Shown: positions 14,414 through 30,585 of the stretch, piece by piece | Layout of the letters: each line of letters begins with the position of its first letter | Position numbering within the stretch: position 1 is the stretch's first letter | Source: Paracoccaceae bacterium | GTDB lineage: Bacteria; Pseudomonadota; Alphaproteobacteria; Rhizobiales; Stappiaceae | Reading direction: 5' to 3' | Length of the DNA: 64,000 nucleotides | Assembly: GCA_002709505.1 (NCBI GenBank) | Contig: PARB01000045.1 | Location: 21,502 to 85,501, forward strand | Notes under the pieces: model-generated | Databases searched by the model: none | What the model saw: the letters and a program-made list of their open reading frames with translations, nothing else | Told to the model about the DNA's origin: nothing | Made by a program: the position numbers and the translations under genes

Positions 14414-14429
14414 TTGGTAGCGGAGGAGG
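14414..14429. repeat. att core direct repeat (ttggtagcggaggagg)
   Basis: Exact 16-bp match to 30508-30523 at the tRNA 3' end; 149 bp upstream of the integrase. Confidence 0.93.
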
Positions 14430-14552
14430 CCACCAAGTTACCGTCCGACGATGTTTTTCGATGCCCTTTTTTGTCTATGTAAATCAGACATTTATCTGAA
14501 TTCTATGTCCACATAGGTCTTGATGTGCCTACATGTTTCCTCCATATTTTAG

Positions 14553-14569
14553 GGGTAGAAAATGGGTAG
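14553..14569 (+). promoter_or_regulatory. Putative integrase arm-type sites GGGTAG-N5-GGGTAG
   Basis: Same motif and spacing at 30450-30466 inside the other end of the element. Confidence 0.75.
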
Positions 14570-14578
14570 GGATGGGTC

Positions 14579-15874
14579 ATGGCGAGTGGCATTCATCGGC
14601 TTTCAGATCGGCAGATCAAGGCATACAAGCAACGCGGGCGGCTATCGGACGGCGGCGGGCTTTACCTGCAAGTCAGCAAGTGGGGCACGAAGTCATGGGA
14701 ATTCCGGTTCACGCTTCACGGCAAGACCCGCACCATGGGGCTAGGCCAGTACGAACTTGTGCCGCTCAAGAAGGCAAGGGAAGAGGCCGAAGCGCTTCGT
14801 CAAATTGTGCGCGAAGGCAACGACCCTATAGAGGCACGCAATGCTGCGAAGCTGAAAGCGCAGCTAGAGGCCGCAACGTCCATTCTGTTCAAAGACGCCG
14901 TTGAAAAGTGCATCGCGCGAAAGGAAGGCGAATTCCGCAGCGATAGGCACCGTAAGAACTGGCGTCGCAGCATGGATGCGTATGCGGTGCCGGTCATTGG
15001 TGACATGAACGTTGCGAATGTCACGACGCAAGACATTCTGCGAGTGCTGAACCAGCCGGTTGACGATGGCACCCTGCGGGAAAACAGAACCGAAACCGCG
15101 TCGCGCCTTCGTGGCCGCATTGAAAACGTCCTGTCGTGGGCCACGGTCGCGGGCTTCCGTACCGGCGACAATCCGGCGCGATGGATGGGCAACCTAAAGG
15201 AACTTCTGCCGACGCCTTCCAAGGTGGCGAAGGTCACGAAGCAACCGGCACTTTCGCAAGCGGACCTCCCCAAGTGGTTTGCCGACCTACGCAAGCGCGA
15301 CGGCATCGCCGCGCGGGCGTTGGAATTCTTGACGTTGTGCGCGTCGCGTTCGGGCGAAATACGCGGCGCGACATGGCAGGAAATCGACCTAGACGCCCGC
15401 ATGTGGAAGATACCGGGCGCGCGGATGAAAATGGAACGCGACCACCGCGTGCCGCTGTCCGACGCCGCTGTTGCGGTGCTAGAGGCGCTTCCTCGCATTG
15501 AGGGGTCAGACTATGTGTTCCCTGCCGTCCGGGGTGGTTCCCTGTCCGATGCGGCCCTGTCAGCCGTCATGCGCCGGATGCACGCTGCCGAAGAGAAGGC
15601 GGGCCGGAAAGGGTGGCTAGACCCGGACAGCGGGCTTCCTGCCGTGCCCCACGGCTTGCGCTCGACCTTTCGCGTATGGACGGCAGAACGGGGCTACGAC
15701 CACCACATGTCGGAAATGGCCCTTGCCCACAACGTAGGCTCGACAGTCGAACGGGCGTATCAGCGTAGCGACATGGTAGAACGCCGTCGCGCCATGATGG
15801 CGGATTGGGCGGCGTATTGTCGTGGCGAGGCAACCGCCGATAACATCGTGCATCTTCGCGCGGAGGCTGTTTAA
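14579..15874 (+). CDS. int: P4-family tyrosine integrase
   Basis: Arm-binding domain (DGGGLYLQV...MGLGQY); catalytic R (RSGEIRG), K (MKM), HGLR, LAH and Y (AYQRS) all present. Confidence 0.96.
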   Translation: MASGIHRLSDRQIKAYKQRGRLSDGGGLYLQVSKWGTKSWEFRFTLHGKTRTMGLGQYELVPLKKAREEAEALRQIVREGNDPIEARNAAKLKAQLEAATSILFKDAVEKCIARKEGEFRSDRHRKNWRRSMDAYAVPVIGDMNVANVTTQDILRVLNQPVDDGTLRENRTETASRLRGRIENVLSWATVAGFRTGDNPARWMGNLKELLPTPSKVAKVTKQPALSQADLPKWFADLRKRDGIAARALEFLTLCASRSGEIRGATWQEIDLDARMWKIPGARMKMERDHRVPLSDAAVAVLEALPRIEGSDYVFPAVRGGSLSDAALSAVMRRMHAAEEKAGRKGWLDPDSGLPAVPHGLRSTFRVWTAERGYDHHMSEMALAHNVGSTVERAYQRSDMVERRRAMMADWAAYCRGEATADNIVHLRAEAV

Positions 15875-16302
15875 TGGAGAAAAATACGAAGTTGCCCTAT
15901 GGCTACGACGCAAATGCGCAGTACCCATATAATTGCCCCCAAAACGAAGTAGAAGCATGGGAACGGCTAGCCGAAATTCAGTTATCGCTTGATAAAGGCG
16001 AAGCTATCCCATCCGAACTGGCAAGTTGGCTTGGTAATGCAATTGCGTATTCAGGCCAAAACCCCGACGAACTATTGCGGCGTTTGGGCTTGAAGCGCGG
16101 ACGCGGCGCGACGAAGCGCAACCCGAATGCATGGCGCGTATACGGTCGCCGTGTGTGCGAACTTGAAGACGAAGGAATGAAGGCCGAAGAAGCCCTTGCG
16201 CAAGTCTTATCCGAGACAGACGACATGTTCAGCCGGTCGCAGCTTCAAAACCTTCGTGACGAATACCGCGCAACGCGCGATGCTGCACTGAACCCCGAAT
16301 AA
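15874..16302 (+). CDS. Hypothetical protein, possibly DNA-binding
   Basis: TAATG overlap with int; basic LGLKRGRG motif followed by helices. Confidence 0.65.
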   Translation: MEKNTKLPYGYDANAQYPYNCPQNEVEAWERLAEIQLSLDKGEAIPSELASWLGNAIAYSGQNPDELLRRLGLKRGRGATKRNPNAWRVYGRRVCELEDEGMKAEEALAQVLSETDDMFSRSQLQNLRDEYRATRDAALNPE

Positions 16303-16895
16303 TGCCAACGATGAACGATGACGAAGTGAACCGCTCGATTATTGACCGGGACAATCTGCCCGCGAATTTTCCTACCCACAGGCATTCGCCGGAATTTTGG
16401 GAACAGCTTGGCCGCACCGTGGCGACCTTCGGATTTCTGGAAGAAGTCTTAGGCAAAGCAATCTTCGCGTTCACGGCAACGCGGAATTATTCCGCCGAAG
16501 AAATCGACGCGGCCTATCGGGAATGGCTACCGCAGCTTGAACGCGCGTTGACCGATCAGCTTTGGAACTTGGCCGAATGCTACGGAAAGGCCGCACGCGA
16601 CAATCCTGCGACAACGACGACGAACATAGACGAATTGGTTGAAGACATTAAGAAAGCGACCGTCATTCGCAATGTGCTTTGCCATGGGTCGTGGCGAACG
16701 CCGGATGCAAACGGCGCGTCCGTGCCGCTATTCATCAACCGGCAAAAGCAAAAATTCGATACGGCAATAGACCTCGCGTATTTGAAGCAAGTGCAAGCGT
16801 ACGTAGCGGAACTGGCGTGCAGCGTCGTAGACACCGTAACGCACATGGGTTGGCAGTTTCCCGGCGGGGCGGGCTCGGGAAAACCGATCATTTAG
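16302..16895 (+). CDS. HEPN-like protein
   Basis: TAATG overlap; LGRTVATFGFLE helix and RNVLCH (R-x4-H) motif. Confidence 0.6.
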   Translation: MPTMNDDEVNRSIIDRDNLPANFPTHRHSPEFWEQLGRTVATFGFLEEVLGKAIFAFTATRNYSAEEIDAAYREWLPQLERALTDQLWNLAECYGKAARDNPATTTTNIDELVEDIKKATVIRNVLCHGSWRTPDANGASVPLFINRQKQKFDTAIDLAYLKQVQAYVAELACSVVDTVTHMGWQFPGGAGSGKPII

Positions 16896-16998
16896 CAAGG
16901 TTCAACGCGTCTGCCACCAATTCCCCCGGTTCGGTGGCAGCTTGCGTAAGGGAACCTTGGCAAACCTTGGACTTATCAGTGACCAAGGAGCCAACCCA

Positions 16999-17274
16999 AT
17001 GAACACCCAAGCCAACACCCCCGCGCCGCCCGCCGCCTGCACCCTCATGCGTCCCGCCGACGTGTCCCGGATTACCGGCATGAAACGCAGCACGCTTTAC
17101 AACCATATCGACAAGGGCACGTTCCCCCGCCCCGTAAAGTTGGGCGAGCGTTTCGCCGTGTGGCCGTCCGACGAAGTGCAGGCAATCTTGAACGCCCGCA
17201 TTGCCGGAAAGGGTGACGACGAAATCCGCGTGCTTGTCGGCGAACTCATGGAAGCGCGAAAGCATCGCGCGTAG
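16999..17274 (+). CDS. alpA: AlpA family regulator/excisionase
   Basis: AAGGAG RBS; LMRPADVSRITGMKRSTLYNHIDKGTFPRPVKLGERFAVWPSDEV. Confidence 0.93.
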   Translation: MNTQANTPAPPAACTLMRPADVSRITGMKRSTLYNHIDKGTFPRPVKLGERFAVWPSDEVQAILNARIAGKGDDEIRVLVGELMEARKHRA

Positions 17275-17398
17275 CCGTACGGTAGAGAATGTCTCTACCG
17301 CGCTGTTCATTCAACTCACTTGAATTCCATCAAAAATATCTGGGATCGTGCAAATCAGAGCACTCTACCCACGTACTACCCACAGGCGCGCTGCGAAA

Positions 17399-18886
17399 AT
17401 GTCGAATAGTCCGCTTCTAACCCCATCGCCCGGCACACTTGGCTTGCTAGAAGACATTGCCGATTACGTCTACCGGCAAGCCCCGCGCCCGACACATGAA
17501 GCCGCCATGGTGGCAGCGATTGCGCTTTCAGCGGGCATCTATGGCCGGGCGTTCAACGTGTCTGGCACAGGGTTGAACGTGTGGTTGCTGTTTCTCGCGC
17601 TGACCGGCACCGGCAAGGACGCTATCGCTTCCAGCCTATCGAAGTTAATGCAGGCGGTCGTTCACGGCGGCAACATGAGGCCGGGAGCACCGGAAGTCTT
17701 TCCCGCTGCAAAGGAATTCGTGTCGTTCAGCGACATGGCGTCCGGGCAGGCCATGCACAAGCACCTAGCGAAGTGTACCAGCACGCTATTCGTGAACGGC
17801 GAAGCCGGGATCAGCTTTTCGCAGATGAACAGCCCAAAAGCGCCGCAACATGTCCAGAACATGAAGAAACTTCTTCTCATGTCCTACAGCAAGAGCGGCG
17901 CAGGCGAGACGCTTGGCGGCATCAAATACAGCGAACGGGAAAAAGACATTGCGCCCATCGCATCCCCGGCACTTAGCATCGTGGCCGAAAGCGTGCCTGA
18001 AACGGTCTTCGCCTTGCTGGACGAAACGCAAATCGCCGATGGCTTCATGCCGCGCTGGACTATCATAGATTACCCCGGCGACCGCCCATACCTGAATGAG
18101 CATCGGCTAAAACAGCCGCCAGAAGCCTTAGTGGGAAAGCTGACCGAGCATTGCGAACTTGCGCACCGGATCAACCAAGGCGGTGTGCCCACAACGGTCA
18201 ATATGACTGAAGACGCGGAATGGGAACTTCGCGGCTTCAACGATTATTGCGATAGTCAAATCCGAGGTAGCGGCGAAGTGCACCGCCAGCTTTGGAACCG
18301 CGCGCACCTCAAGGCAATGAAGCTTGCCGCAATTGCCGCCGTCGCTGTTGACCCGCTTAACCCTGTCGTGAACTTCGACCAAGCCCGTTGGGCCGCAATG
18401 ATCGAACACGATAGCGTCCAACGCCTCTTGCGTCGCTATGAAGCGGGTGAAGTTGGCGACCAATCGAAGTCGGACAAGGCACAACAAGAGCATGTGCGAC
18501 GTGTTATCCGCGAATGGATCGAACGCCCGTGGTCTGAAATGCAGCGTTACAAGATCGCGGACGCTGACGTGCACGGAAAGCAGGTTATCCCGTGGTCCTA
18601 TATTTCCAAGCGCCTAACGAACGTTGTGGCATTCAAACAAGCCCGAAACGGAGCAACGAGCGCAATCCGCCAAGCCGTCAGGGAATTGATGGCCTGTGGG
18701 GAAATCGTACGTGTGCCGAATGAGCAATTAGCGAAGATTACAAATAGCAACGCCGAATTTTTTATGCTGGCGGAAGAAAGCGACGTGTTCGGCGGCGAAT
18801 TCAAACGACGCGTTGGCGAAGACCGAAGGGCAAAGCAAGCCCTCAAGGGCATCATGGCGGGCACGCCGCCGGGGGAGGAAATCTAA
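17399..18886 (+). CDS. DUF3987-like P-loop helicase/replication protein with no primase domain
   Basis: Walker A ALTGTGKD, DGFMPRW, LWNR...AMKLA; located directly after alpA. Confidence 0.7.
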   Translation: MSNSPLLTPSPGTLGLLEDIADYVYRQAPRPTHEAAMVAAIALSAGIYGRAFNVSGTGLNVWLLFLALTGTGKDAIASSLSKLMQAVVHGGNMRPGAPEVFPAAKEFVSFSDMASGQAMHKHLAKCTSTLFVNGEAGISFSQMNSPKAPQHVQNMKKLLLMSYSKSGAGETLGGIKYSEREKDIAPIASPALSIVAESVPETVFALLDETQIADGFMPRWTIIDYPGDRPYLNEHRLKQPPEALVGKLTEHCELAHRINQGGVPTTVNMTEDAEWELRGFNDYCDSQIRGSGEVHRQLWNRAHLKAMKLAAIAAVAVDPLNPVVNFDQARWAAMIEHDSVQRLLRRYEAGEVGDQSKSDKAQQEHVRRVIREWIERPWSEMQRYKIADADVHGKQVIPWSYISKRLTNVVAFKQARNGATSAIRQAVRELMACGEIVRVPNEQLAKITNSNAEFFMLAEESDVFGGEFKRRVGEDRRAKQALKGIMAGTPPGEEI

Positions 18887-18935
18887 GGTTTCAAAGGGTC
18901 GATAATCGCCTAAGTGCATGGAATTGCGAAGATAT

Positions 18936-19096
18936 AATGTTCTAATGTTTCTAACGCCAGAAACATCAAACCAGCCCAAATGCCAACCGGGCAATACACG
19001 CAATACCCTTAGACCATTAGAAAATTTATGTATTTGACATTATTTTCAATCGCTTATGGCGTCTAATGCCGCCGACGAAGGACTTAGAGGCTAAGA
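18936..19096. other. Putative replication origin with TCTAA/TTAGA iterons
   Basis: TCTAA at 18941, 18950 and 19062; TTAGA at 19009, 19017 and 19084; AT-rich tract at ~19020-19050; immediately downstream of the rep gene. Confidence 0.55.
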
Positions 19097-19127
19097 ACCG
19101 CCGCAACGTAGAGAAAGGGGCGTAACT

Positions 19128-19547
19128 TTGACGACGCGGAAACCAAAAGCGCCTTCACCCGCTGATGATACAGCGGAAAACAGCGCTGTGGGCAAGCCGT
19201 TCAAAAAGGGTCAGAGCGGCAACCCGGCAGGCAGACCGAAAGGCGCGCGCAGCAAGCTATCCGAAGCATTCCTTTCGAGCTTGGCGGATGATTTCGATGT
19301 GTATGGGTTGGATGCCATTGAGGCGTTGCGACGTACCGACCCAAAATCCTACCTGCAAATCATTGCTGCCGTTACGGCCAAGGTTCCACTGGCAGAAGTC
19401 ACCGTGACCAACAACACGCTCGTAGACCAGCGCCGCGTCATGGTGGTTAAAGATCACGGCACGGATGCCGAGTGGGAGGCCAAGCTGCGGACACAACAGC
19501 GCGCGCTTACCGAAGCCGCTACGGTCAGCGAACCCGAGAAAAAGTGA
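19128..19547 (+). CDS. DUF5681 / terminase small subunit-like protein
   Basis: PFKKGQSGNPAGRPKGARSKLSEAFL motif. Confidence 0.75.
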   Translation: MTTRKPKAPSPADDTAENSAVGKPFKKGQSGNPAGRPKGARSKLSEAFLSSLADDFDVYGLDAIEALRRTDPKSYLQIIAAVTAKVPLAEVTVTNNTLVDQRRVMVVKDHGTDAEWEAKLRTQQRALTEAATVSEPEKK

Positions 19548-19830
19548 AACCCCGCGCACGTTCCCGCCGCATTATCTCAGAGCGTACCCGCGCCCACCGT
19601 CCCTGCTCAAAAATGTCGCTGTCGTACCACGCGCGATGCTCTTCCATGCAGACGATATCAAACGCCCGCTCGCCGTGCTGGGCGTAGACCTCTTCGACCT
19701 TCGCGGCGATTTCGCGACGCGGGATGAGGCGGGGGCGAACGGAACCCTGCCAGACCGACCAGAGTAGCGTTCCCCAAATCGGCGACAAACAAACCACCCA
19801 AATTATGGCGGATACCCATGTTTCCGACAT
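19525..19830 (-). CDS. Small membrane protein
   Basis: N-terminal TM helix (WVSAIIWVVCLSPIWGTLLWSVW); divergent from the XRE gene. Confidence 0.55.
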   Translation of the reverse strand: MSETWVSAIIWVVCLSPIWGTLLWSVWQGSVRPRLIPRREIAAKVEEVYAQHGERAFDIVCMEEHRAWYDSDIFEQGRWARVRSEIMRRERARGFTFSRVR

Positions 19831-19908
19831 ATCCCGCACCACACGAACGTTGACTACAATATGTTCTTATATCACTACATATCGTACGTGGCCAGAAGTG
19901 TGTCTATG

Positions 19909-19925
19909 GGGAACAGAATGTTCCC
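19909..19925. promoter_or_regulatory. Inverted repeat GGGAACA-gaa-TGTTCCC abutting the XRE start codon
   Basis: Perfect 7-bp arms ending 1 nt before ATG 19926. Confidence 0.6.
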
Positions 19926-20255
19926 ATGGAGATATTCGCTAAACGGCTACAGGAACGCGCGAAGCAACTCGGCATATCAAATGCCGAAGCTGCACGGCGT
20001 GTGGGATTGGAAGAGCGGCGCTACGCACACTATGCGTCGGGACGACGGGAACCGGACTTGGCCACTTTGAAGTCTATATCGGAAGCGCTCGGGATCACGC
20101 CAAACTGGCTGCTTGGCGTGATCGACAAGCTTGAGAAAGAACCGGAAAAAGCTGCATTGATTGATAGATTTTCAAATGCTGCTTTAGGAATGACTAGAGA
20201 AGAACTTGAACTCTGCGTCATACAGGCTGAAGCGGTAGTTGCGTCTAAGAAATGA
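19926..20255 (+). CDS. XRE/Cro-family HTH regulator
   Basis: FAKRLQERAKQLGISNAEAARRVGLEERRYAHYASGRREPDL. Confidence 0.92.
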   Translation: MEIFAKRLQERAKQLGISNAEAARRVGLEERRYAHYASGRREPDLATLKSISEALGITPNWLLGVIDKLEKEPEKAALIDRFSNAALGMTREELELCVIQAEAVVASKK

Positions 20256-20288
20256 TTCGGAACTTGTTGGTGAAAGTATTTTGGGGGA

Positions 20289-22673
20289 GTGTTTTTGGAG
20301 ACCGAGGCCGACACATGCCGGAAAGAGGTGATACCGAAACTTGTTGAAGCTGGATGGGATAACCCACCCTACGCCATCAACGAGCAACGGTCTTTCACGG
20401 ACGGACGCATCGTGTTCGTTGGCGGTAAGGCGCGTCGGGGGCGGCAAAAGCGAGCCGACTTCATCCTGCGCTATCGGTCAGACTTCCCCATTGCTGTAGT
20501 CGAGGCAAAATCCAAATACAAACACGCTGCCGACGGCCTCCAACAAGCAAAAGATTACGCGGAAATCCTTGGTCTGAAGTTCGCCTACGCAACCAATGGC
20601 CGGGAAATCGTTGAGATAGACTACACCACCGGCATTGAACGCGATTTGACCTCGTTCCCGTCACCCGAAGAACTTTGGCAGCGCCTTTCACAATCCGAAA
20701 ATCTTGACGACGATATCAAGGAACACCTGCTCTCACCGACCTTTCCCGACAAGGACAAGCCGCTTCGATACTATCAGGAAATCACGGTCAATCGCGCAGT
20801 GCAATCGATCCTTCAGCAACGCAAGCGCGTTCTGCTCACGCTTTGCACCGGCGCAGGAAAGACCGCTGTTGCATTCCAGATTTGCTGGAAGCTGTGGAAC
20901 GGTGGCTGGAACCCGAAGGGCAAGAACCGGAAACCGAAAATCCTGTTCTTGGCTGACCGGAACGTTCTGGTAGACGATCCCAAAGACAAGGACTTTAGCG
21001 CCTTTGGTGATGCCCGCTTCAAAATCAGCGGCGGGGAGATTAGCAAGGGGCGCGACATCTATTTCGCAATCTATCAGGCGATTGCGGGCGATGAATCCCG
21101 CGACGGCTTATTCAAGGAATATGCGAAGGATTTCTTCGACCTCATCATCGTTGATGAATGCCACCGTGGCAGCGCCCGCGACGACAGCAATTGGCGTGAA
21201 ATTCTCGAATGGTTTGAGCCTGCCTACCAGATCGGAATGACCGCGACGCCTAAGCGGGAAGACAACGCCGACACCTATAATTACTTCGGCGATCCAGTTT
21301 ACGAATATAGCCTTGCTCAAGGCATCGCCGATGGCTTCTTGGCACCCTACCGCGTTCACCGCGTGATTTCCGATTTTGATGCGGCGGGCTGGCGTCCGTC
21401 TCAAGGCGAACTCGACCGCTACGGACGTGAAATCCCCGATGCGCAGTATGGAACACGCGATTTCGAACGCGTCGTTGCTCTACGTGCGAGAACCGAGGCT
21501 TTCGCAACGCACCTTACAAGCTTCCTCAAGCAAACAGATCGCTTCGCGAAAACCATCGTCTTTTGCGTGAACCAAGAACACGCCCTTGAGATGCGCAATG
21601 CACTTGCACGTCTAAACGCCGATCTTGTGAAACAGCACCCCGACTATGTGTGCCGCGTCACTTCCGACGAAGGCGACGTTGGCTCCGCGCACCGCGCCAA
21701 ATTTCAGGACATCGACAAGGCGACGCCGGTTATCCTCACAACGTCACAATTGCTGACAACCGGTGTCGATGCACCGACGTGCAAGAACGTGGTGCTGGCG
21801 CGTGTCGTCGGCTCAATGCCGGAATTCAAGCAGATTATCGGGCGCGGAACACGGCTGCGGCCCGATTACGGCAAGCTTGCTTTCAACATCATTGATTACA
21901 CCGGCACCGCCACCGAAAAATTCGCCGATCCCGCTTTTGACGGCGATCCGGTCAGAGAGCGTGAACAGGTCATCGACGAAGACGGCGATGTTGTAGACGA
22001 AACTGAAATCACCGAAGAAACCGATACCCCCGGCGACATCGACACGACCGAAATAGACGGTACGAACGGTGGCCTACCCGACGACACAGAACCGGGCTTG
22101 CCACGAAAATTCTACTATGACGGTGGCAGCGTCGAGATTATCCGCCAACTGGTCTACGAACTCGATTCCGAAGGCAAACAACTCGCAGTCCGCCAACTGA
22201 CCGACTACACCGGCGAAAAGGTTCGCACGCTCTATCCCAACGCTTCCGAACTCAGGAAGGATTGGCTCGACCCTGCACGCCGCGCCGATATCATCGAACA
22301 GCTTGAGGACAAGGGCATCGACACGCAAACGCTTGGTGAGGCTGTGGGCAAGCCCGATGCCGATCCGTTCGACCTGCTTTGCCATCTGGCCTACAACGCA
22401 CCACTTCGCACGCGCCGTGAGCGCGCCGAACGCCTGAAGCGTGAAGAAACGGCCTTCTTCGAACAGCACGGGGACAAAGCCCGCGAAGTGCTCGACGCGC
22501 TCATTGAGAAATATGCGGAGCACGGAACCGCGCAATTCAAAATGCCCGACGTGCTCGAAATCCCGCCTTTCAACGATTGGGGCAACGTCGTGGAAATCGC
22601 CGCCCGCTTCGGCGGCGGCAAGGCCATGCGCGAAGCCGTCAACGAACTGCAAAAGCGCCTATACGGCGCATAA
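20289..22673 (+). CDS. hsdR: Type I restriction subunit R (EcoEI-like)
   Basis: Nuclease RADFIL...VVEAK; Walker A CTGAGKT; DECH; QIIGRGTR; EcoEI-type C-terminus (DPFDLLCHLAY). Confidence 0.95.
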   Translation: MFLETEADTCRKEVIPKLVEAGWDNPPYAINEQRSFTDGRIVFVGGKARRGRQKRADFILRYRSDFPIAVVEAKSKYKHAADGLQQAKDYAEILGLKFAYATNGREIVEIDYTTGIERDLTSFPSPEELWQRLSQSENLDDDIKEHLLSPTFPDKDKPLRYYQEITVNRAVQSILQQRKRVLLTLCTGAGKTAVAFQICWKLWNGGWNPKGKNRKPKILFLADRNVLVDDPKDKDFSAFGDARFKISGGEISKGRDIYFAIYQAIAGDESRDGLFKEYAKDFFDLIIVDECHRGSARDDSNWREILEWFEPAYQIGMTATPKREDNADTYNYFGDPVYEYSLAQGIADGFLAPYRVHRVISDFDAAGWRPSQGELDRYGREIPDAQYGTRDFERVVALRARTEAFATHLTSFLKQTDRFAKTIVFCVNQEHALEMRNALARLNADLVKQHPDYVCRVTSDEGDVGSAHRAKFQDIDKATPVILTTSQLLTTGVDAPTCKNVVLARVVGSMPEFKQIIGRGTRLRPDYGKLAFNIIDYTGTATEKFADPAFDGDPVREREQVIDEDGDVVDETEITEETDTPGDIDTTEIDGTNGGLPDDTEPGLPRKFYYDGGSVEIIRQLVYELDSEGKQLAVRQLTDYTGEKVRTLYPNASELRKDWLDPARRADIIEQLEDKGIDTQTLGEAVGKPDADPFDLLCHLAYNAPLRTRRERAERLKREETAFFEQHGDKAREVLDALIEKYAEHGTAQFKMPDVLEIPPFNDWGNVVEIAARFGGGKAMREAVNELQKRLYGA

Positions 22674-22688
22674 GAAAGAGAAATACCC

Positions 22689-24245
22689 TTGGCCCGCCAA
22701 CCGAAGAAGAAGCAGCCACAGACAACAGCTCAACGCCTTGACAGCATCATCAAGTCGGCGCGGAAGATCATGCGCAAGGACAAGGGACTGAGCGGCGACC
22801 TTGACCGTCTGCCGATGCTCACTTGGATTATGTTCCTGAAGTTCTTGGATGACATGGAGCATATTGAGGAAGAGCGCGCAGAGATCGCGGGCAAGGCTTA
22901 TCGCGGCGCTGTCGAAGCACCCTACCGTTGGCGCGATTGGGCTGCGGAAGAAGGCGGCATCACCGGCCCCGACCTGATTGACTTCTTGACGTTGGACGTA
23001 GCCGAACGCCCGGACGGAACCAAAGGGCCGGGCTTGTTCGCCTATCTGCGAAGCCTTCGCGGAAACAATGGCACGCGCGGGCGCAAGGACGTGATCGCGA
23101 CCGTGTTCCGTGGTCTGTCGAACCGCATGGAAAGCGGCTATCTGCTGCGCGATGTCATCAATCTTATTGACGGCATTCACTTCGATTCCTCCGACGAAAT
23201 TCATACGCTCGGTAGGCTATATGAAACCCTGCTGCGCGAAATGCGCGATGCCGCAGGCGATTCCGGCGAGTTCTACACGCCGCGTTCCATTGTGCGTTTC
23301 ATGGTCGAGGTTACGGACCCACAGCTTGGTGAAGCGGTTCTTGATCCGGCCTGCGGCACAGGCGGTTTTTTGACCGAAGCCTATGCGCACATGGCCAAAC
23401 AGGCCGATACGGTCGAAAAGCGCGAAATCCTCCAATCGTCGAGCATCTTCGGCGGGGAAGCGAAGCCGCTTCCCTTCCTTCTGGTGCAAATGAACCTTCT
23501 GCTACACGGTTTGGAGGCCCCAAAGATCACGCCGGACAATTCATTGAAAGTTCGCCTGTCGGAGATTGGCGAGGCCGACCGTGTGGACGTTATTCTGACG
23601 AACCCTCCCTTCGGTGGTGAGGAAGAAACCGGCATTCTGAACAACTTCCCCGAAGACCGGCGCACGGCGGAAACGGCGCTGCTTTTCCTGCAACTCATTA
23701 TGCGGCGAGTGAAGCGGGGCGGAAAAGGTCGCGCCGCTGTTGTCGTGCCGCACGGCGTTCTGTTTGGCGGGGGCATTGCTGCGCGTATCAAGGCGGACCT
23801 GTTGAAGGAATTCAATCTGCACACTGTCATGCGTCTACCTGAAGGCGTCTTTGCGCCCTATACCGATATTTCCACAAACATAATCTTTTTCGACACGACC
23901 AAGGCAACCGGCGACATTTGGTTCTACGAACAACCCAAGCCGGAAGGGCGGAAGAAGTACTCCAAAACTGCGCCGCTAACCTTCGACGAACTCAAGCCCT
24001 GCATCGATTGGTGGAACGCCCGCGAAGAAAACGAACAGGCGTGGAAAGTGCATGGTCCCGACCTTATCGAAACGGACGATGCAGGCCGGATTAGCGCCTG
24101 CAATCTTGACCTGAAAAACCCGAACGCAACCGGTGTGGTAGATCATCGCACTCCACTCGAAATCGTCGAAAGCATTGAGGTCAAGGAACAGCGTATTCTC
24201 TCCATAATGGGCGATATCAAGCGCACTCTGTCGGAGATGGCATAG
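22689..24245 (+). CDS. hsdM: Type I m6A methyltransferase
   Basis: GEFYTPR, DPACGTGGFL and NPPF motifs. Confidence 0.96.
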   Translation: MARQPKKKQPQTTAQRLDSIIKSARKIMRKDKGLSGDLDRLPMLTWIMFLKFLDDMEHIEEERAEIAGKAYRGAVEAPYRWRDWAAEEGGITGPDLIDFLTLDVAERPDGTKGPGLFAYLRSLRGNNGTRGRKDVIATVFRGLSNRMESGYLLRDVINLIDGIHFDSSDEIHTLGRLYETLLREMRDAAGDSGEFYTPRSIVRFMVEVTDPQLGEAVLDPACGTGGFLTEAYAHMAKQADTVEKREILQSSSIFGGEAKPLPFLLVQMNLLLHGLEAPKITPDNSLKVRLSEIGEADRVDVILTNPPFGGEEETGILNNFPEDRRTAETALLFLQLIMRRVKRGGKGRAAVVVPHGVLFGGGIAARIKADLLKEFNLHTVMRLPEGVFAPYTDISTNIIFFDTTKATGDIWFYEQPKPEGRKKYSKTAPLTFDELKPCIDWWNAREENEQAWKVHGPDLIETDDAGRISACNLDLKNPNATGVVDHRTPLEIVESIEVKEQRILSIMGDIKRTLSEMA

Positions 24246-26041
24246 TGGCGTGGCGAACTGTTCAATTAGGCGAAGTTCTAAGGCAAAAGCGCGACAGGGT
24301 TCGAATAGAACCCGGTAAGCCCTACAAACAGATCACGGTACGGCTGTGGGGTAAGGGCCTTGCGCTGCGCGGCACAAGCGATGGTTCGGAAATCGCCGCC
24401 GAAAGCCAAGTCGCGGTTGGAAGGAACGATTTTTTAATATCGAAGATCGATGCGCGACACGGAGCGTTCGGGCTAGTGCCTGCCGACCTTGAAGGCGCGG
24501 TGGTGAGTAACGACTTCCCGTGCTTCACAGTGAGGCAAGACCTGCTTGATTCCCGCTTTCTCGAATGGTTTTCAAAAACGGAGACCTTTGTATCCGTCTG
24601 CCAACAGGCAAGCACAGGCTCTACCAATCGCGTTCGTTTAAAGGAAGGAAGCTTCCTCGGCTTCGAAATTCCGCTTCCTTCGCTGGATGAACAACAAGCA
24701 ATTGCCAGCCGGCTGGACGAGGTACACGCGAAGCTCGGAGAGCGAGAAGTCGAACTTGCAGCCGTCGAACGCGAAGCCAACGCCATGTTGTTCAACGCGT
24801 TTCAAGAAATTACCGACGGCATTGAGTACCTACCGCTTTCCGAAGTGGCACCGCTCGTACGGCGTCCCGTCGATATCGAGCCAGATGTTGAGTATCCTGA
24901 ATTGGGCGCGCGTTCATTTGGGCGCGGACTATTCCATAAACCATCCCTGCTCGGAGCGAAGATAACTTGGCAAAAGCTGTTTTGGATACATCGTGGCGAC
25001 CTCGTTTTGAGCAATATCAAGGCATGGGAGGGCGCGTTCGGCGTCGCTAGTGATAACGATCATTTGCGCGTCGGTTCCCACCGATATCTGACCTGTGTTC
25101 CGAAGACCGACGTCATTTCCGGCCATTTCCTTTGGTACTACCTCCAATCAAGGGAAGGGCTGGAAAAGGTCGGTGCGGCTTCACCCGGAAGCGCAGATCG
25201 CAATCGCACACTTGGCCAGAAGGCGTTGATGGCCATTGAAGTTCCCGTTCCCAATCTGAAAGTTCAACAGCGCTTTACGAGGTTGCACGCCTTAGTCGAA
25301 CAGGTGCGCGCCATTCGTGCTTCCACAGCGAAGGACGCGGAAGCCCTTATCCCCGCCATGCTGCACGAGATTTTCGAGCGGCAAGCAAACAAGCCTGACG
25401 CGGCTCCTTTGACATCGGAGGCAAACGTTGTTCAGCTTCCGACCAAACAAAAGCCTAAGATCGATACACCCTTCAAGGAAGCGGTTCTTGTCGGAGCCAT
25501 CGTCAAAGCCTTCCACGAAGACAACGGTCAACCGATAGGCAACTTCCGTCTGCAAAAGGCGGTTTACTTCGCGCGTCGCCAAATGGGCGAAAGCGCGCTC
25601 GACAAGGATTATCTCCGCAAGGCCGCAGGCCCATACAATCCGAAAATGCGCTATTCCGGTGGTATCAAAATCGCCACGGACAAGAACTGGATCAAGCGTG
25701 CGACCGGCAAATATGGCGAAGGCAACGCGTTGGGCGATGCCGCCGCAGAAATGGACGAATGGATTGAACGCTACCAGTTCGCCCCCGCCGCAGCGTGGGT
25801 GCGCGACCGTTTCAAATACATCAAGAACGACCTGTGGGAAACGCTCGCAACCATCGACTACGCCATGCTGGCATTAGACCATGACGGCAAACGCCCAACC
25901 CCGGAAGCAATCCTTTCCTACATCGAAGCCGACGACGAATGGCGTCCCAAGATCGCAAAGCTACGCCTCACCCAAGCGTCGATCCAAAACGTCACGGTCG
26001 AGCTTGAGAGCTTGTTTGCAGATGTGGGAGGTGTCGTCTGA
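24245..26041 (+). CDS. hsdS: Type I specificity subunit with a ~200-aa C-terminal extension
   Basis: Two TRD/conserved-helix units (IPLPSLDEQQAI, VPVPNLKVQQRF), then a linker and an extra domain. Confidence 0.9.
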   Translation: MAWRTVQLGEVLRQKRDRVRIEPGKPYKQITVRLWGKGLALRGTSDGSEIAAESQVAVGRNDFLISKIDARHGAFGLVPADLEGAVVSNDFPCFTVRQDLLDSRFLEWFSKTETFVSVCQQASTGSTNRVRLKEGSFLGFEIPLPSLDEQQAIASRLDEVHAKLGEREVELAAVEREANAMLFNAFQEITDGIEYLPLSEVAPLVRRPVDIEPDVEYPELGARSFGRGLFHKPSLLGAKITWQKLFWIHRGDLVLSNIKAWEGAFGVASDNDHLRVGSHRYLTCVPKTDVISGHFLWYYLQSREGLEKVGAASPGSADRNRTLGQKALMAIEVPVPNLKVQQRFTRLHALVEQVRAIRASTAKDAEALIPAMLHEIFERQANKPDAAPLTSEANVVQLPTKQKPKIDTPFKEAVLVGAIVKAFHEDNGQPIGNFRLQKAVYFARRQMGESALDKDYLRKAAGPYNPKMRYSGGIKIATDKNWIKRATGKYGEGNALGDAAAEMDEWIERYQFAPAAAWVRDRFKYIKNDLWETLATIDYAMLALDHDGKRPTPEAILSYIEADDEWRPKIAKLRLTQASIQNVTVELESLFADVGGVV

Positions 26042-27189
26042 TGCGGGCAACGGAAAAAGCGCTGATGGCGCGCGGTATGGATTCCGTTAGCGCGGCGAAG
26101 CTTGCTCAAGACGGCTGGACGCTCAACAAGCTGAAGTTGGCCAGCGAGGCTGAGCTAAAGGCCTTAGGGCTGGTTGAAGGCTTCATCAAAGCGTTACTCA
26201 AAGAACAGCGCCCGCCTATTCCAATCGACAATCTCATGAAGGTGCTTTTCGACAATCGCTTTCAGTGCTGCGTGTGTAGAGACCCCAAGCAGTCAATTAT
26301 CGTTCATCACATAGACGAGTGGGCGCACAGTCGTAGTCATAACATCAAAAACTTGGCGGTTCTGTGCCTCCAACATCACGACAAGGCGCATACAAGAAGC
26401 ACTTTGTCGCAGAATTTGGACGCAGCCACGCTGCGCGGTCTGAAGGCGGGATGGGAATCTGAAGTCAAAAAGCGAGACGCCGAATCTATTTACGCTGCAA
26501 TGCGCCTCGAATACAGCAACTGGAATTACATCAATGAGTTGCGCGTTTTTGAGATTGCAAACAAACTGAAAATAGATTTTTCGAGTGTCAAGTATTTTTT
26601 TAACGCAAGCGCGGCGGGTGTGATTGACTCAGATGGGATGCCCATTCCAGTTAATAACGATGAACTGTTTTACATGTACCAAGGCGCAGCAGTTTTGCAG
26701 CGCTATCATTACATAGCCAACGTATTCAACGAAGTTGTCAAGAGAATACCAATAGTTAATGTTTCGGACTTTCTCGACAAAGGTGTTTTGGGCTTTGCTC
26801 TGGTTCCGGGCGAATTCATATTCGTTCAGGGGAAGCACATCTTTTCGCCCATAGAGAATAGGCATAAATATCAAGGTCGCGGGCAAATATGTGAGGGCGT
26901 ACGACGCGCGAATGAAGTTGAGGTTCGGTTTGTTTTTGACCGGTGGGAAGCAACTTCAAGTTCCGCACAAAGCCAATGGCTTACCGGAACCCGTGATCAA
27001 GGCAGTCTAGTTCACGTGAAAGACTTATCCCGCGAAGAGGGGCGTTTGGTCATTCGTGGAACAGTCCTCGGAATTGGTTCCAACTTCGGTGATCTCAAAA
27101 CGCGTGAATATGCCCAGAGTTGGTTGGAATGGATGCCCACGCGTCAGGAAGATGACGACATAGACGACGATTGGCTGGATGACGAATGA
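26041..27189 (+). CDS. HNH endonuclease-domain protein
   Basis: CCVC...VHHI...NLAVLCLQHHDKAH; TGATG overlap with hsdS. Confidence 0.85.
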   Translation: MRATEKALMARGMDSVSAAKLAQDGWTLNKLKLASEAELKALGLVEGFIKALLKEQRPPIPIDNLMKVLFDNRFQCCVCRDPKQSIIVHHIDEWAHSRSHNIKNLAVLCLQHHDKAHTRSTLSQNLDAATLRGLKAGWESEVKKRDAESIYAAMRLEYSNWNYINELRVFEIANKLKIDFSSVKYFFNASAAGVIDSDGMPIPVNNDELFYMYQGAAVLQRYHYIANVFNEVVKRIPIVNVSDFLDKGVLGFALVPGEFIFVQGKHIFSPIENRHKYQGRGQICEGVRRANEVEVRFVFDRWEATSSSAQSQWLTGTRDQGSLVHVKDLSREEGRLVIRGTVLGIGSNFGDLKTREYAQSWLEWMPTRQEDDDIDDDWLDDE

Positions 27190-28238
27190 CAGAAGAGCGG
27201 ATCGAACGGTTTTTCTGCAATGCCTGCAAACAGAAGACCAAGCACTTCATTCGTGGCGAATACAACAAACACGATGGCGACGCTGCCTACTGGTACAAGC
27301 ACCGTATGCTAATCATTGAGTGCTGCGGTTGCGAGAATCTTGAACTCGTCAAGATGACGTTGTTTTCGGAAGATGTTGAGTATTTCGACAACCCGGATAC
27401 CGGTGAACCGGACAGCGAAGGCAAGTGGGATGAGGTCATTTATCCGCCCGTAACCTACCGTAACCCCCCAACGTGGTTCGAAGACTTGCCGGACCCAACG
27501 CTTCGGGCAATTTCCGACGAAATCTACAACTCTCTGCAAACCGGCTCCAATTATCTCGCGACCTTCGGTTCGCGGACGCTGATTGACCGTTTGATTGTTC
27601 TGACTGTCGGCGATAAGGGCAACTTCCCAAAGGGGCTGCAAGCCCTACAGGACGGCGGCATGCTGTCCCAACATGAGCGGGATATCTTGAACCCCGTTGT
27701 CGATGCCGGGAACGCCGCAGCCCATCGCGGCTGGGCACCAACGAAGGAACAAATCGCCGTCATACTCGACACCGTTGAAGGGCTGATACACAGGCTTCTT
27801 GTATTGCCGAAACTGGCTGAAGAGCTGGAAGAGGCTGTGCCAAGCCGTGGGGGCGGTGGGAAGGCAAAAGCTGGGAAGCCAGTCGTCACCGTGAAGGACA
27901 AGATCGACGCAGCACCAAAGGATTTGCGCGCGATCTACGACGAACTTGCCGGAAAGCTTCGGGCGCTGGGCGACGACGTGACGGTCCACCCACAGAAACA
28001 CTATATGGCTTTTCGCCGGAACAGAAATTTCGCGTCCGTCCAAATCTACAACCAAAAACGTGTTGTGCGCGTCTACCTGAATCTCGATCCCGACGCCGTT
28101 GAGTTTGACCCGGCTATGATGCGCGACGTTCGCCAGATCGGCCATTTCGGCACGGGCGACTTGGAGATCACCCTTAAGTCGAAGAAGGATATCGAGAAGG
28201 TATCTGCGCTGATAGAGACGAGTTATGAGGCGTCATGA
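27186..28238 (+). CDS. Zn-ribbon + DUF4145 + DUF5655 fusion protein
   Basis: CNAC..TKH and CCGC; GNAAAH; C-terminal YMAFRRNRNFASV...GHFGTGDLEI. Confidence 0.8.
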   Translation: MTEERIERFFCNACKQKTKHFIRGEYNKHDGDAAYWYKHRMLIIECCGCENLELVKMTLFSEDVEYFDNPDTGEPDSEGKWDEVIYPPVTYRNPPTWFEDLPDPTLRAISDEIYNSLQTGSNYLATFGSRTLIDRLIVLTVGDKGNFPKGLQALQDGGMLSQHERDILNPVVDAGNAAAHRGWAPTKEQIAVILDTVEGLIHRLLVLPKLAEELEEAVPSRGGGGKAKAGKPVVTVKDKIDAAPKDLRAIYDELAGKLRALGDDVTVHPQKHYMAFRRNRNFASVQIYNQKRVVRVYLNLDPDAVEFDPAMMRDVRQIGHFGTGDLEITLKSKKDIEKVSALIETSYEAS

Positions 28239-28289
28239 AGCCAATGGGATAATGATTTGTGACTTTCGCGCATGTCGGAGAAATTTTGA

Positions 28290-29627
28290 ATGAGTAGTTC
28301 CGCTAAATCTACTGCCGTCGCAGTCAAAAAGGTTTCGATGCCGGACGTTCTGGCTTCGTCTGAATCGATGATTGTGAAGGTGACGGATGCCCTTGGGCTG
28401 CCACGGGATATTTTGCCGAGCGATGACCAGATTAAGCACGCTTGGGACCAATTGCCCCGCCTACTTACAAGCATCCCGCCAGAACTACGTGATGAGCGCC
28501 TTGTCAAAATGTGCGTGGCAGTTTCGTGCGGCCTATTTGATGCCGGGATCAATTATGTCTGGAACGCCGCAGTTCTGGAACTTCGCAATAAAGTTCGACA
28601 CTTCGGAATCGAAATTATTCCGCAAGTCCTTGATAAGTCTAACTTCGATGAATCAACGCTCGTCGATCTGAAAGATTCCGAACTTCTGGATTTATGTCTC
28701 AAGTTAAATTTGATCGGAGATGATGATTTCTTCTTCTTGGATCAATGTCGAGCGACCCGAAACAATTTCTCCGCTGCTCATCCTGCCGACGGTGCGATAG
28801 ATGAATATGAATTCATCAATTTTGTAAATCGCTGTCGAAAGCACGCGTTGGTCAGCCAGAAAAACCCCAAAGGAGTAGATGTACGCAAGCTCATTACGGC
28901 ACTAAAGGCGGGTAGATTTACGAAAGATCAACGCGACGAATGGCTTCGTAGAATTGAAGAAACATTTGACGCGCAACGTGAGCTTATTTTTCCGATGCTC
29001 CATGGCATTTATTGTGACCCGGCAGCAGGAGAAGAAGCCAGAAACAACGCGCTTACGATATGTGAAAAACTAGCGAAGAGCTTCAGTCCAAAGGCTCGTT
29101 CAGCGCTCATCGATCAGCACCAAGATTACAAAGCAAAAGGCGAAGACAAGCGGGCATCCGCATCCAGCTTGTTCTTTGAAAAGATCGGTTTTCTTGGCCT
29201 GCTTGGCGAAGCAGAAGTGCACGGCGCGATAACCAAGGCTTGCCAGAAACTGCTGACCGTCCACAATGGGTTTGACAACTTCTATAATGAACCCCCATTC
29301 GCCGAACGCCTTGCTGCACTTTCCGAAAAGAACTCCGTTCCAAACACTGCGCAGGCCGTATTTGTCGAAGCCGTGATCACATGCGGCATTGGGAATCAGT
29401 ACGGGGTTTCTCACGCAGCGATGCCATCATATAGGCAAATGGTCCGTTCGTTTTCTCCGGCAGAAATCCAGATAATGTTCCAACTTACAAAGGGGACAGG
29501 AACGGTTGCGGCCCGGCTGAAAAGCTATGAGAAGTGTCGTACTAAGTTCAAATCTCTGGTTGGCGAACTCAGTGCTAAGAGCGTTCCAACGGCTGTAAAA
29601 GCGGATTTTGGAAAGTGGTCGTCCTAG
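28290..29627 (+). CDS. HEPN-like hypothetical protein (candidate defence effector)
   Basis: AGINYVWNAAV helix and RNNFSAAH (R-x6-H) motif; AT-rich codon use. Confidence 0.65.
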   Translation: MSSSAKSTAVAVKKVSMPDVLASSESMIVKVTDALGLPRDILPSDDQIKHAWDQLPRLLTSIPPELRDERLVKMCVAVSCGLFDAGINYVWNAAVLELRNKVRHFGIEIIPQVLDKSNFDESTLVDLKDSELLDLCLKLNLIGDDDFFFLDQCRATRNNFSAAHPADGAIDEYEFINFVNRCRKHALVSQKNPKGVDVRKLITALKAGRFTKDQRDEWLRRIEETFDAQRELIFPMLHGIYCDPAAGEEARNNALTICEKLAKSFSPKARSALIDQHQDYKAKGEDKRASASSLFFEKIGFLGLLGEAEVHGAITKACQKLLTVHNGFDNFYNEPPFAERLAALSEKNSVPNTAQAVFVEAVITCGIGNQYGVSHAAMPSYRQMVRSFSPAEIQIMFQLTKGTGTVAARLKSYEKCRTKFKSLVGELSAKSVPTAVKADFGKWSS

Positions 29628-29630
29628 GCA

Positions 29631-30434
29631 ATGCTTGTTGCCGAACTTAATGGGGGCCGAATCGACGCATTTTCTGCCGAACGCGGGCCAACCTATAATT
29701 GTCCGAAGTGCCGTGGCGAGGTCGTGCTTAAGAAGGGCCGGAAGGTCGTTCACCACTTCGCGCACAAGCCGCCGACAGACTGCACATGGGCGACAGGCGA
29801 GACACGCGCCCATATGGAAGCAACGATTCTTGTGTCGAACGCACCAAAGGTGCGCGGGCTACGGGAGGAAGTTGAATTCATCGTCAACACCTTGCCGGGC
29901 GACCGCCGCGCCGATGTTATGGCGTGGTCGCCGAAGGGGCTTCAAATCGCGTTCGAACTGCAACACACGCCGATAGGTCTAGACGAAATCGAGCGGCGCG
30001 CTTTGTCGTATGCGCGTGCGGGCATCGCTCAAATCTGGATACCCTTCCTCAAATCGAACGTTTGGGATGAAGGCGCGCCACGACACGGCGGCTGGTTTGT
30101 CGAGCGTTACTCGCCTCGCACCTTCGAACGGTGGGTTCACGGTTTCAACGGCAAGAACGGCATGTGGATGTACGACCCCAAAGACAAGGCGTTTTGGCTA
30201 TGTCGTCTCGCAGGGCACCAATCCTACGTCGAAGAAACAACGTGGTATTCAGAAGGCGGCGAAGAAAACTACGGCGGCGGGTTCTGGAAGTATTCCAAAC
30301 GCTTCAAGGAGCTTAGCCTTGAGGGGCCGTACGGGGCCGAAGACCTGTTGATAGAGGTATCGTCGCGTCGCGCGTTCAGCACGTCCGGCTACAACTGGCC
30401 CGCCGCGCGCATCACCAATCTTGTGCCCGCCTGA
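29631..30434 (+). CDS. CoiA-like nuclease
   Basis: CPKC...HHFAH...C Zn finger, ETRAH, RRADV...AFELQ. Confidence 0.82.
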   Translation: MLVAELNGGRIDAFSAERGPTYNCPKCRGEVVLKKGRKVVHHFAHKPPTDCTWATGETRAHMEATILVSNAPKVRGLREEVEFIVNTLPGDRRADVMAWSPKGLQIAFELQHTPIGLDEIERRALSYARAGIAQIWIPFLKSNVWDEGAPRHGGWFVERYSPRTFERWVHGFNGKNGMWMYDPKDKAFWLCRLAGHQSYVEETTWYSEGGEENYGGGFWKYSKRFKELSLEGPYGAEDLLIEVSSRRAFSTSGYNWPAARITNLVPA

Positions 30435-30449
30435 ACCTCGCTCCGCATG

Positions 30450-30466
30450 GGGTAGATTGAGGGTAG
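30450..30466 (+). promoter_or_regulatory. Putative integrase arm-type sites GGGTAG-N5-GGGTAG
   Basis: Matches 14553-14569; 41 bp inside the att core. Confidence 0.75.
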
Positions 30467-30508
30467 GATTTCTTATACTGAAAATTCATCAATAAAATTG
30501 ATGAGATT

Positions 30509-30585
30509 TGGTAGCGGAGGAGGGACTCGAACCCCCGACACGCGGATTATGATTCCGCTGCTCTAACCGGCTGAGCTACTCCGCC
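30509..30585 (-). tRNA. tRNA with CAT anticodon (probably elongator tRNA-Met)
   Basis: Reverse complement GGCGGAGTAGCTCAGCCGGTTAGAGCAGCGGAATCATAATCCGCGTGTCGGGGGTTCGAGTCCCTCCTCCGCTACCA; 77 nt with encoded CCA. Confidence 0.97.

Follow-up and report, generated by a model that had tools for sequence, protein, structure and literature searches.

Can the specificity subunit of a type I restriction-modification (R-M) system serve, through an added domain, as the antitoxin of a nuclease encoded directly after it? The question is raised by a stretch of 64,000 nucleotides (nt) from a Paracoccaceae bacterium (GTDB family Stappiaceae; assembly GCA_002709505.1, contig PARB01000045.1, positions 21,502 to 85,501 of the forward strand), here called the window, in which hsdS extends beyond its two target recognition domains (TRDs) into an additional C-terminal domain (CTD) and ends in a stop codon overlapping the start of an HNH nuclease-like gene. 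An original prediction, made from the letters and open reading frames (ORFs) of the window, had assigned the CTD to the antitoxin domains of DarG C-terminal, YwgA and SocA/Panacea type and had proposed that HsdS doubles as an antitoxin or sensor, releasing the HNH protein as a backup nuclease when phage anti-restriction proteins disturb the complex. Our analysis places the CTD with DarG and leads us to read it, tentatively, as a possible partner-binding clamp that would be intrinsic to the R-M system and whose likeliest partner would be the system's own HsdR, and not as an antitoxin of the HNH protein.

A DarG-type domain at the end of HsdS

The genes and segments on which the argument turns are as follows.

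20289-22673, + strand: HsdR, type IB-like restriction subunit (Pfam ResIII, EcoEI_R_C, HSDR_N)
22689-24245, + strand: HsdM methyltransferase (Pfam N6_Mtase, E 2.8e-64, and HsdM_N)
24245-25375, + strand: core of HsdS, amino acids (aa) 1-377, with two TRDs and conserved helices (PADLOC Specificity_I PDLC03141; Pfam Methylase_S)
25376-25465, + strand: linker of HsdS, aa 378-407 (~30 aa), flexible and Pro/Lys-rich (AlphaFold2 pLDDT 65-82 as against >90 for the domain)
25466-26041, + strand: CTD of HsdS, a DarG-C-terminal-domain-like module, aa 408-598 (~190 aa), and stop codon (PADLOC DarG model, HHalign, AlphaFold2, Foldseek, VIA-align)
26041-27189, + strand: HNH nuclease-like protein, 382 aa, translationally coupled to hsdS (Pfam HNH; TGATG overlap)

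HsdS (24245-26041, + strand, 598 aa) thus consists of two TRDs, a linker and the CTD, and the ORFs are exactly as originally noted, the protein continuing past the linker into a domain of the form RLQKAVYF...AAGPY...WETLATIDY...EW..K. The model PDLC03141 matched aa 2-377 (E 1.4e-108, model positions 3-378 of 382), and because this match covers the complete 382-position specificity model, HsdS has two TRDs. It has the features of a type I specificity subunit, with conserved regions accompanying the TRDs and with HsdM and HsdR encoded directly upstream, their starts overlapping or adjacent; the hsdM/hsdS junction overlaps as TAGTG. Across the CTD-family alignment the linker varies in length and sequence. 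The overlap of the hsdS stop with the start of the HNH gene was likewise found as described: it reads TGATG, a Shine-Dalgarno sequence GGGAGG lies 8-15 nt upstream, and the downstream ORF carries the Pfam HNH domain.

The CTD matched the C-terminal half of the PADLOC DarG hidden Markov model (HMM; E 3.3e-6, model positions 162-324 of 329) and was also matched by the PADLOC model of a type I methylase with a C-terminal extension. HHalign comparison of the CTD family with eight alphaproteobacterial DarG proteins gave 96.1% (E 3.3e-9, 165 columns) as against 0.1% for the reversed control, and lined up the motifs (Q/H)K..YF, GPY, LE.LATV and W. AlphaFold2 run on the single CTD sequence reached a pLDDT of 42 and was discarded; the model used, built from a 42-sequence alignment, has a pLDDT of 91.7 and shows a winged helix that leads into a helical bundle. 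Its top match in Foldseek was 7YK3 (probability 1.0, TM 0.54-0.62), and VIA-align against the same entry returned a Z of 13.2 with a root-mean-square deviation of 4.0 over 167 of 187 residues, the second-best match having a Z of 7.6. That entry holds the DarT-DarG complex of M. tuberculosis, and its DarG C-terminal domain is the sole structural match over the full length of the CTD. Profile comparisons and the predicted structure together identify the CTD as a true member of the DarG C-terminal-domain superfamily. The original prediction had seen this type in the pattern QK..YF...GPY...E.LAT, and the structural and profile comparison of the HsdS C-terminal region that it had called for returned an antitoxin-family fold. 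The CTD and the DarG domain share their fold, homology over the whole domain and its motifs, and both stand at the C-terminus, tethered to a DNA-protecting module. They differ in the N-terminal partner, which is HsdS here and a macrodomain in DarG, and their identity is only 12-15%. The operon also differs from DarTG by lacking a DarT gene: its ORFs gave no DarT or Macro match in Pfam, and DarT (PF14487) was not found in the bacterium's own genome (85% complete), an absence that is weak since control genomes gave no match either.

Kinship to Panacea/SocA (DUF4065, PF13274), another part of the proposed assignment, held over one shared helix and is plausible but weak on these profiles. HHalign against 25 Panacea proteins gave 73.7% (E 2.9e-5; reversed control 0.07%), with only 21 columns confidently aligned, namely the LQK..YF helix alone, whereas the remainder of the CTD does not align and no Pfam match, PF13274 included, was obtained even at E<=10. 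The association of one Panacea domain with many toxins resembles the variable neighbours described below, but Panacea is a stand-alone antitoxin beside its toxin, whereas the CTD is fused to an R-M subunit. Homology of DUF4065 proteins to the DarG C-terminal domain is stated independently in a 2026 paper (PMC13621843). NCBIfam at permissive thresholds gave no match to the CTD, a phmmer search of PDB sequences with the CTD found nothing, a family profile that includes part of HsdS retrieved HsdS entries only from the same sequences, and the ESM Atlas returned only unnamed clusters of ~210 aa. Two ordinary Panacea (PF13274) genes are present elsewhere in the bacterium's own genome (G000:C1:7373-7705 and G000:C30:3184-3456) and are unrelated to the hsd locus.

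Distribution of the module and the genes that follow it

An exhaustive family search, with clustering at 50% identity and E<=1e-3, yielded 427 clusters in which the domain is always C-terminal and mostly sits on an HsdS of ~600 aa. At an overall identity of ~30%, the positions K, R, GPY, E, T, D, W and K are invariant; the RLQKAVYF...EW..K pattern is no chance motif. In the 88 CTD loci inspected (8 from genomes, 80 from metagenomes) the CTD occurs on HsdS of three type I lineages, which we term clades A, B and C. Clade A has the gene order R-M-S and CTDs 62-92% identical to that of the window, clade B has an HsdS of ~770-830 aa with ~53% CTD identity, and clade C has the order M-S-[X]-R-YgjP with ~30% CTD identity. 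The domain is also carried by one HsdM-HsdS fusion, by Eco57I/MmeI-like methylases and by a PF01555 methylase, the fusion partner being a DNA methylase or specificity module in every case. Furthermore, one locus (L053, 967-2978) holds a split form, in which hsdS is of the normal kind (422 aa) and the CTD has a gene of its own (245 aa) 5 nt further on; therefore the CTD can act as a free subunit.

The domain is optional. The nearest CTD-less relative of clade A (L159, 2384-10559; HsdM 66% identical) has an HsdS of 393 aa, and a clade-C sister without the CTD (HsdR 70-73% identical) has one of 430 aa. Within the genome of the window the CTD occurs once; it occurs in 0 of 400 other genomes of the class, and tblastn gave no match in PLSDB plasmids. 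The CTD is an optional module that has been gained repeatedly by methylase and specificity subunits of several R-M classes and is absent from close sisters.

Where present, the CTD is preserved. Its identity follows that of HsdM/HsdR regardless of the downstream gene, and three R-M lineages have retained it alongside freely recombining TRDs. None of the signature residues K50, R57, GPY74-76, Y82, E144, T148, D150, W178 and K181 has been lost in minimal M-S(CTD)-R operons or in clade-A loci without a coupled downstream gene. The CTD is under purifying selection, independent of its neighbours. The integrity of the signature without a downstream effector suggests that each of these systems contains a conserved partner.

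Two further settings of the domain were seen. A subfamily with S44, A57, L130 and H150 is carried by very large Eco57I/MmeI-like methylases (L081, 53-4471; L084, 2861-7588; L087, 1-7577), one of which precedes a 1757-aa DEAD/MZB/DUF559 helicase-nuclease, resembling DISARM-type or related systems. In two alphaproteobacterial genomes unrelated to each other, the gene directly downstream of an HD + HD_assoc_2 hydrolase encodes a stand-alone DarG-CTD-like protein of 170-198 aa (L128, 1450-2046, and L131, 1405-1917, both - strand); such a pair may be a toxin-antitoxin-like or defence pair, and these neighbours therefore indicate that partner swapping occurs in the superfamily.

Does the CTD go with an effector? 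The genes directly after CTD-bearing hsdS encode the HNH family, an unknown 364-aa protein, HEPN/RES, SIR2 and Abi_C proteins, and in other loci Schlafen/AlbA_2, a NucS-like nuclease, McrBC, GmrSD, AAA_15 with DUF3226, a retron or a cyclase-STAND protein; in the remaining loci hsdR is directly next or no gene is coupled. Many of these downstream genes come from known defence families (retron reverse transcriptase with PRTase, GmrSD, McrBC). The HNH family stands directly after CTD-hsdS in 6 of the 18 clade-A loci, that is, in the window and five others. Of 13 non-redundant clade-B loci, 10 have a coupled 229-aa Abi_C protein, usually accompanied by a RecD-like helicase, and in most clade-B loci its gene overlaps hsdS by 4 nt. 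A Ruegeria sp. (L005, 10935-13506) has a retron-like pair, namely one protein combining PRTase-CE with a winged helix-turn-helix (wHTH) and a reverse transcriptase, 319 nt after its CTD-hsdS.

Such diversity resembles partner swapping, but it is seen with ordinary hsdS as well. As a control, 36 CTD-less hsdS loci of the same class were analysed identically. A coupled (<=30 nt) downstream gene other than R-M was found in 26 of 64 CTD loci (41%) and in 14 of 36 controls (39%; Fisher p=1), and at <=150 nt in 55% of CTD loci as against 42% of controls (p=0.3), a comparison that is rough given heuristic ORF calls and loci related by descent. Coupling is equal with and without the CTD, and therefore the main comparative argument for a guarded effector is removed. 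The co-occurrence with downstream toxins that the original prediction had named as a check does not rise above the level of CTD-less hsdS, and the outcome it had named as speaking against itself, a fusion usually occurring with no effector, was borne out by about half. Embedded genes of CTD and control loci have only the HsdR and YgjP-like families in common. Moreover, the CTD-less clade-A sister L159 has SIR2 and HerA directly after hsdS, and therefore the 3' end of this operon type is a general slot for defence cargo. In its operon layout and in the variable genes directly after hsdS (seen in 39% of the 36 CTD-less loci) the system resembles ordinary type I R-M, from which it differs by the extra DarG-like domain on HsdS.

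The HNH protein itself carries Pfam HNH PF01844 at aa 76-119 (23.3 bits, cut-off 21.4), with the ligand pattern CxxC...HH...N...H..H in its translation; its N-terminal ~60 aa and aa 140-382 had no match in Pfam, PDB sequences or the ESM Atlas. The family of its C-domain comprises 68 clusters and occurs in 0 of 400 other genomes of the class. A relative with 43% identity over 93% coverage stands alone on Bradyrhizobium elkanii plasmids, where neither R-M nor CTD accompanies it. Comparison with about 100 other loci gave no sign that the CTD controls the adjoining HNH gene, and the proposal that HsdS acts as antitoxin or sensor for this gene is not supported: coupling is not enriched, the CTD is kept in minimal M-S-R operons, an autonomous system, the SIR2-HerA pair, fills the slot in the CTD-less sister, and the HNH relative does without either element.

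What the domain may bind

The reading that we prefer, as a possibility held with reserve, is that of an R-M-intrinsic clamp. The flexible linker of ~30 aa tethers a DarG-CTD homologue to an otherwise normal two-TRD HsdS, and the CTD would bind a partner common to all carrier systems, for which the system's own restriction component is the favoured candidate. DarG combines enzymatic repair with direct toxin binding. In a similar manner, a methylase core bearing the CTD might protect its host twice, by methylating DNA and by directly holding or handing over the nuclease subunit, which could be useful, for example, when an island has newly entered a host or when restriction is being alleviated. 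The four appended genes (HNH, DUF4145-DUF5655, HEPN-like and CoiA-like) would then be separate defence cargo in a variable slot at the 3' end of the hsd operon.

Several observations weigh against binding of HsdR. It is a contact that we infer, with structure predictions that cover the domain alone. The CTD goes with HsdR families that bear no relation to each other (EcoEI_R_C type versus HSDR_N/T1R_D3 type), and no HsdR match was found near the Eco57I/MmeI-like methylase fusions; with such unrelated nuclease types it is not obvious that one HsdR interface could be conserved throughout. Since type I HsdR depends on the methylase core for its activity, the need for an extra restraint is only an argument. 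CTD-less sisters function without the domain. In addition, the lineage-specific coupling to HNH in clade A (6/18) and to Abi_C in clade B (10/13) is strikingly conserved. Net charge, considered as a mark of DNA mimicry or DNA binding, also counts among these points, for it gave no consistent signature across clades: the CTDs of clades A and B, including that of the window, have an isoelectric point (pI) of ~6.5, those of clade C a median pI of 8.2, and DarG CTDs range from 5 to 6.8.

An alternative is that the CTD is an antitoxin or tether for the coupled HNH protein, and elsewhere for Abi_C/HEPN, SIR2 or RES proteins, the effector being freed when anti-restriction proteins disturb the core. 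We hold this to be rather unlikely. A known member of the superfamily, the DarG domain of 7YK3, does bind and neutralise its toxin. In 6 loci spanning CTD identities of 62-92%, hsdS and the HNH gene still overlap as TGATG, and HNH identity drops in step from 78% to 64%, and the 4-nt overlap of Abi_C with hsdS recurs in most clade-B loci. At high HsdM identity, CTDs adjoining HNH are 85-92% identical to the CTD of the window, as compared with 81-84% for those adjoining other genes; several HNH-family clusters lie on contigs equal in size to those of CTD-HsdS clusters, and the stand-alone DarG-CTD-like genes beside HD-domain hydrolases in two unrelated genomes also fit such a role. On the other side, coupled effectors are not enriched over CTD-less HsdS, and conservation of the CTD extends to minimal M-S-R operons and to loci lacking a coupled downstream gene. 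One and the same CTD lineage (81-84% identity) adjoins RES, the unknown 364-aa protein or nothing; the HNH family has a member without R-M or CTD, and many of the neighbours are autonomous systems.

Precedents for an effector held silent by a type I complex exist in PrrC, as the original prediction had pointed out, and in Ronin. They share with the present locus an extra effector gene inside or beside the hsd operon, here the HNH gene overlapping the hsdS stop. To our knowledge, PrrC goes with no added antitoxin-type domain on HsdS. The locus differs from Ronin in comprising a complete R-M system with HsdR, the dependence of the effector on the core being putative here, and from PrrC/Ronin-like guarding in that the added domain is not specifically associated with an effector (26/64 versus 14/36). 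For PrrC-EcoprrI and Ronin (RonA-HsdMS), silencing of the effector by the type I methylase core has been described and release by anti-restriction proteins proposed, in an account of Ronin that contains no added antitoxin-type domain on HsdS (bioRxiv 10.1101/2023.04.06.535777). In a wider form of the same idea, which we consider unlikely, the R-M methylase core would be a modular antitoxin platform whose DarG-type domain silences swappable effectors (HNH, Abi_C/HEPN, SIR2, RES, Schlafen-like) until anti-restriction attack frees them; if true, it would amount to a generalised, domain-encoded guarding of PrrC/Ronin type.

Nor do we regard as probable that the CTD is a winged-helix module binding either nucleic acid or something of phage origin, be it a ligand or a protein (for instance an acidic anti-restriction protein that mimics DNA), and that it thus extends or regulates the engagement of the core with DNA, or is a built-in sensor or decoy, independently of a nuclease partner. 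The N-terminal half of the CTD model is a winged helix, with many wHTH matches at Z 5-7.6, DNA-binding regulators and Lamassu LmuC among them. The methylase or specificity modules to which the CTD is fused all bind DNA, and polar and aromatic residues that stay invariant at ~30% identity suggest a single conserved site for a ligand. About half of the clade-C CTDs are basic (pI>8), but those of clades A and B, the window included, are near neutral. A C-terminal wHTH extending the DNA interface has been reported for the BREX methylase BrxX (PMC12839542), whereas the solved relative DarG is reported to bind and inhibit DarT by mimicry of single-stranded DNA and not to bind DNA, in papers cited by PMC13621843. 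Finally, that the CTD is a functionless leftover, for instance a relic of fusion with a former toxin-antitoxin antitoxin, as its dispensability in sister systems and its rarity (0/400 other genomes of the class) might suggest, is highly unlikely in view of the 427 clusters with invariant residues at ~30% identity, the confident AlphaFold2 model and its retention in three R-M lineages with freely recombining TRDs.

Type I R-M systems are among the best-studied defence systems, yet our full-text literature search brought up no account in which HsdS or an R-M methylase is joined to an antitoxin-type domain of the DarG/Panacea kind. With 427 clusters across several R-M classes, the family is substantial. 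If the CTD keeps the restriction subunit in check, it would represent a novel means by which R-M systems become safe to take up with mobile islands; a CTD that tethers backup effectors would instead give guarded restriction a physical basis. In both cases the shared domain links toxin-antitoxin and R-M biology.

The island and its gene row

The hsd operon and the four genes appended to it are the cargo of a 16.1-kb integrative island (14414-30523), in which the GC content between the terminal repeats is 0.51-0.59 as against 0.62-0.70 in the flanks. Its remaining features are listed here.

14414-14429: attL-like 16-nt direct repeat TTGGTAGCGGAGGAGG, left end of the island, an exact copy of the tRNA-Met 3' end at 30508-30523
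14579-15874, + strand: tyrosine integrase, P4-type (Pfam Arm-DNA-bind_3, Phage_int_M, Phage_integrase)
19926-20255, + strand: Xre-type HTH protein just 5' of hsdR (Pfam HTH_3, E 1.9e-12)
27186-28238, + strand: Zn-ribbon/DUF4145 + DUF5655 protein, PADLOC candidate PDC-S18-like (Pfam DUF4145, DUF5655; PADLOC PDC-S18, E 2.1e-39)
28290-29627, + strand: 445-aa protein with the Rx6H (HEPN-like) motif RNNFSAAH (phrog_27609, function unknown, E 8.7e-40)
29631-30434, + strand: CoiA-like nuclease-fold protein (Pfam CoiA_N, CoiA_nuc)
30509-30585, - strand: tRNA-Met, the integration site (ARAGORN), its 3' end forming the attR repeat 30508-30523

All genes from the Xre-type HTH gene to the CoiA-like gene are co-directional on the + strand. 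The Xre-type protein is a possible regulator of the operon, and related loci have an ORF of ~115 aa in its position. The HNH gene and the DUF4145-DUF5655 gene overlap as ATGA. The 445-aa protein had no match in the Pfam search, and its motif makes it a candidate for an abortive-infection effector that acts on its own. The four genes after hsdS (HNH, DUF4145-DUF5655, HEPN-like and CoiA-like) are most likely separate defence cargo of the tRNA-Met island. The island also encodes a primase-like protein (17348-18886; phrog_3022, E 2e-114), and the N-terminal Zn-ribbon region of the CoiA-like protein weakly matches PADLOC DruB of Druantia (E 1e-4).

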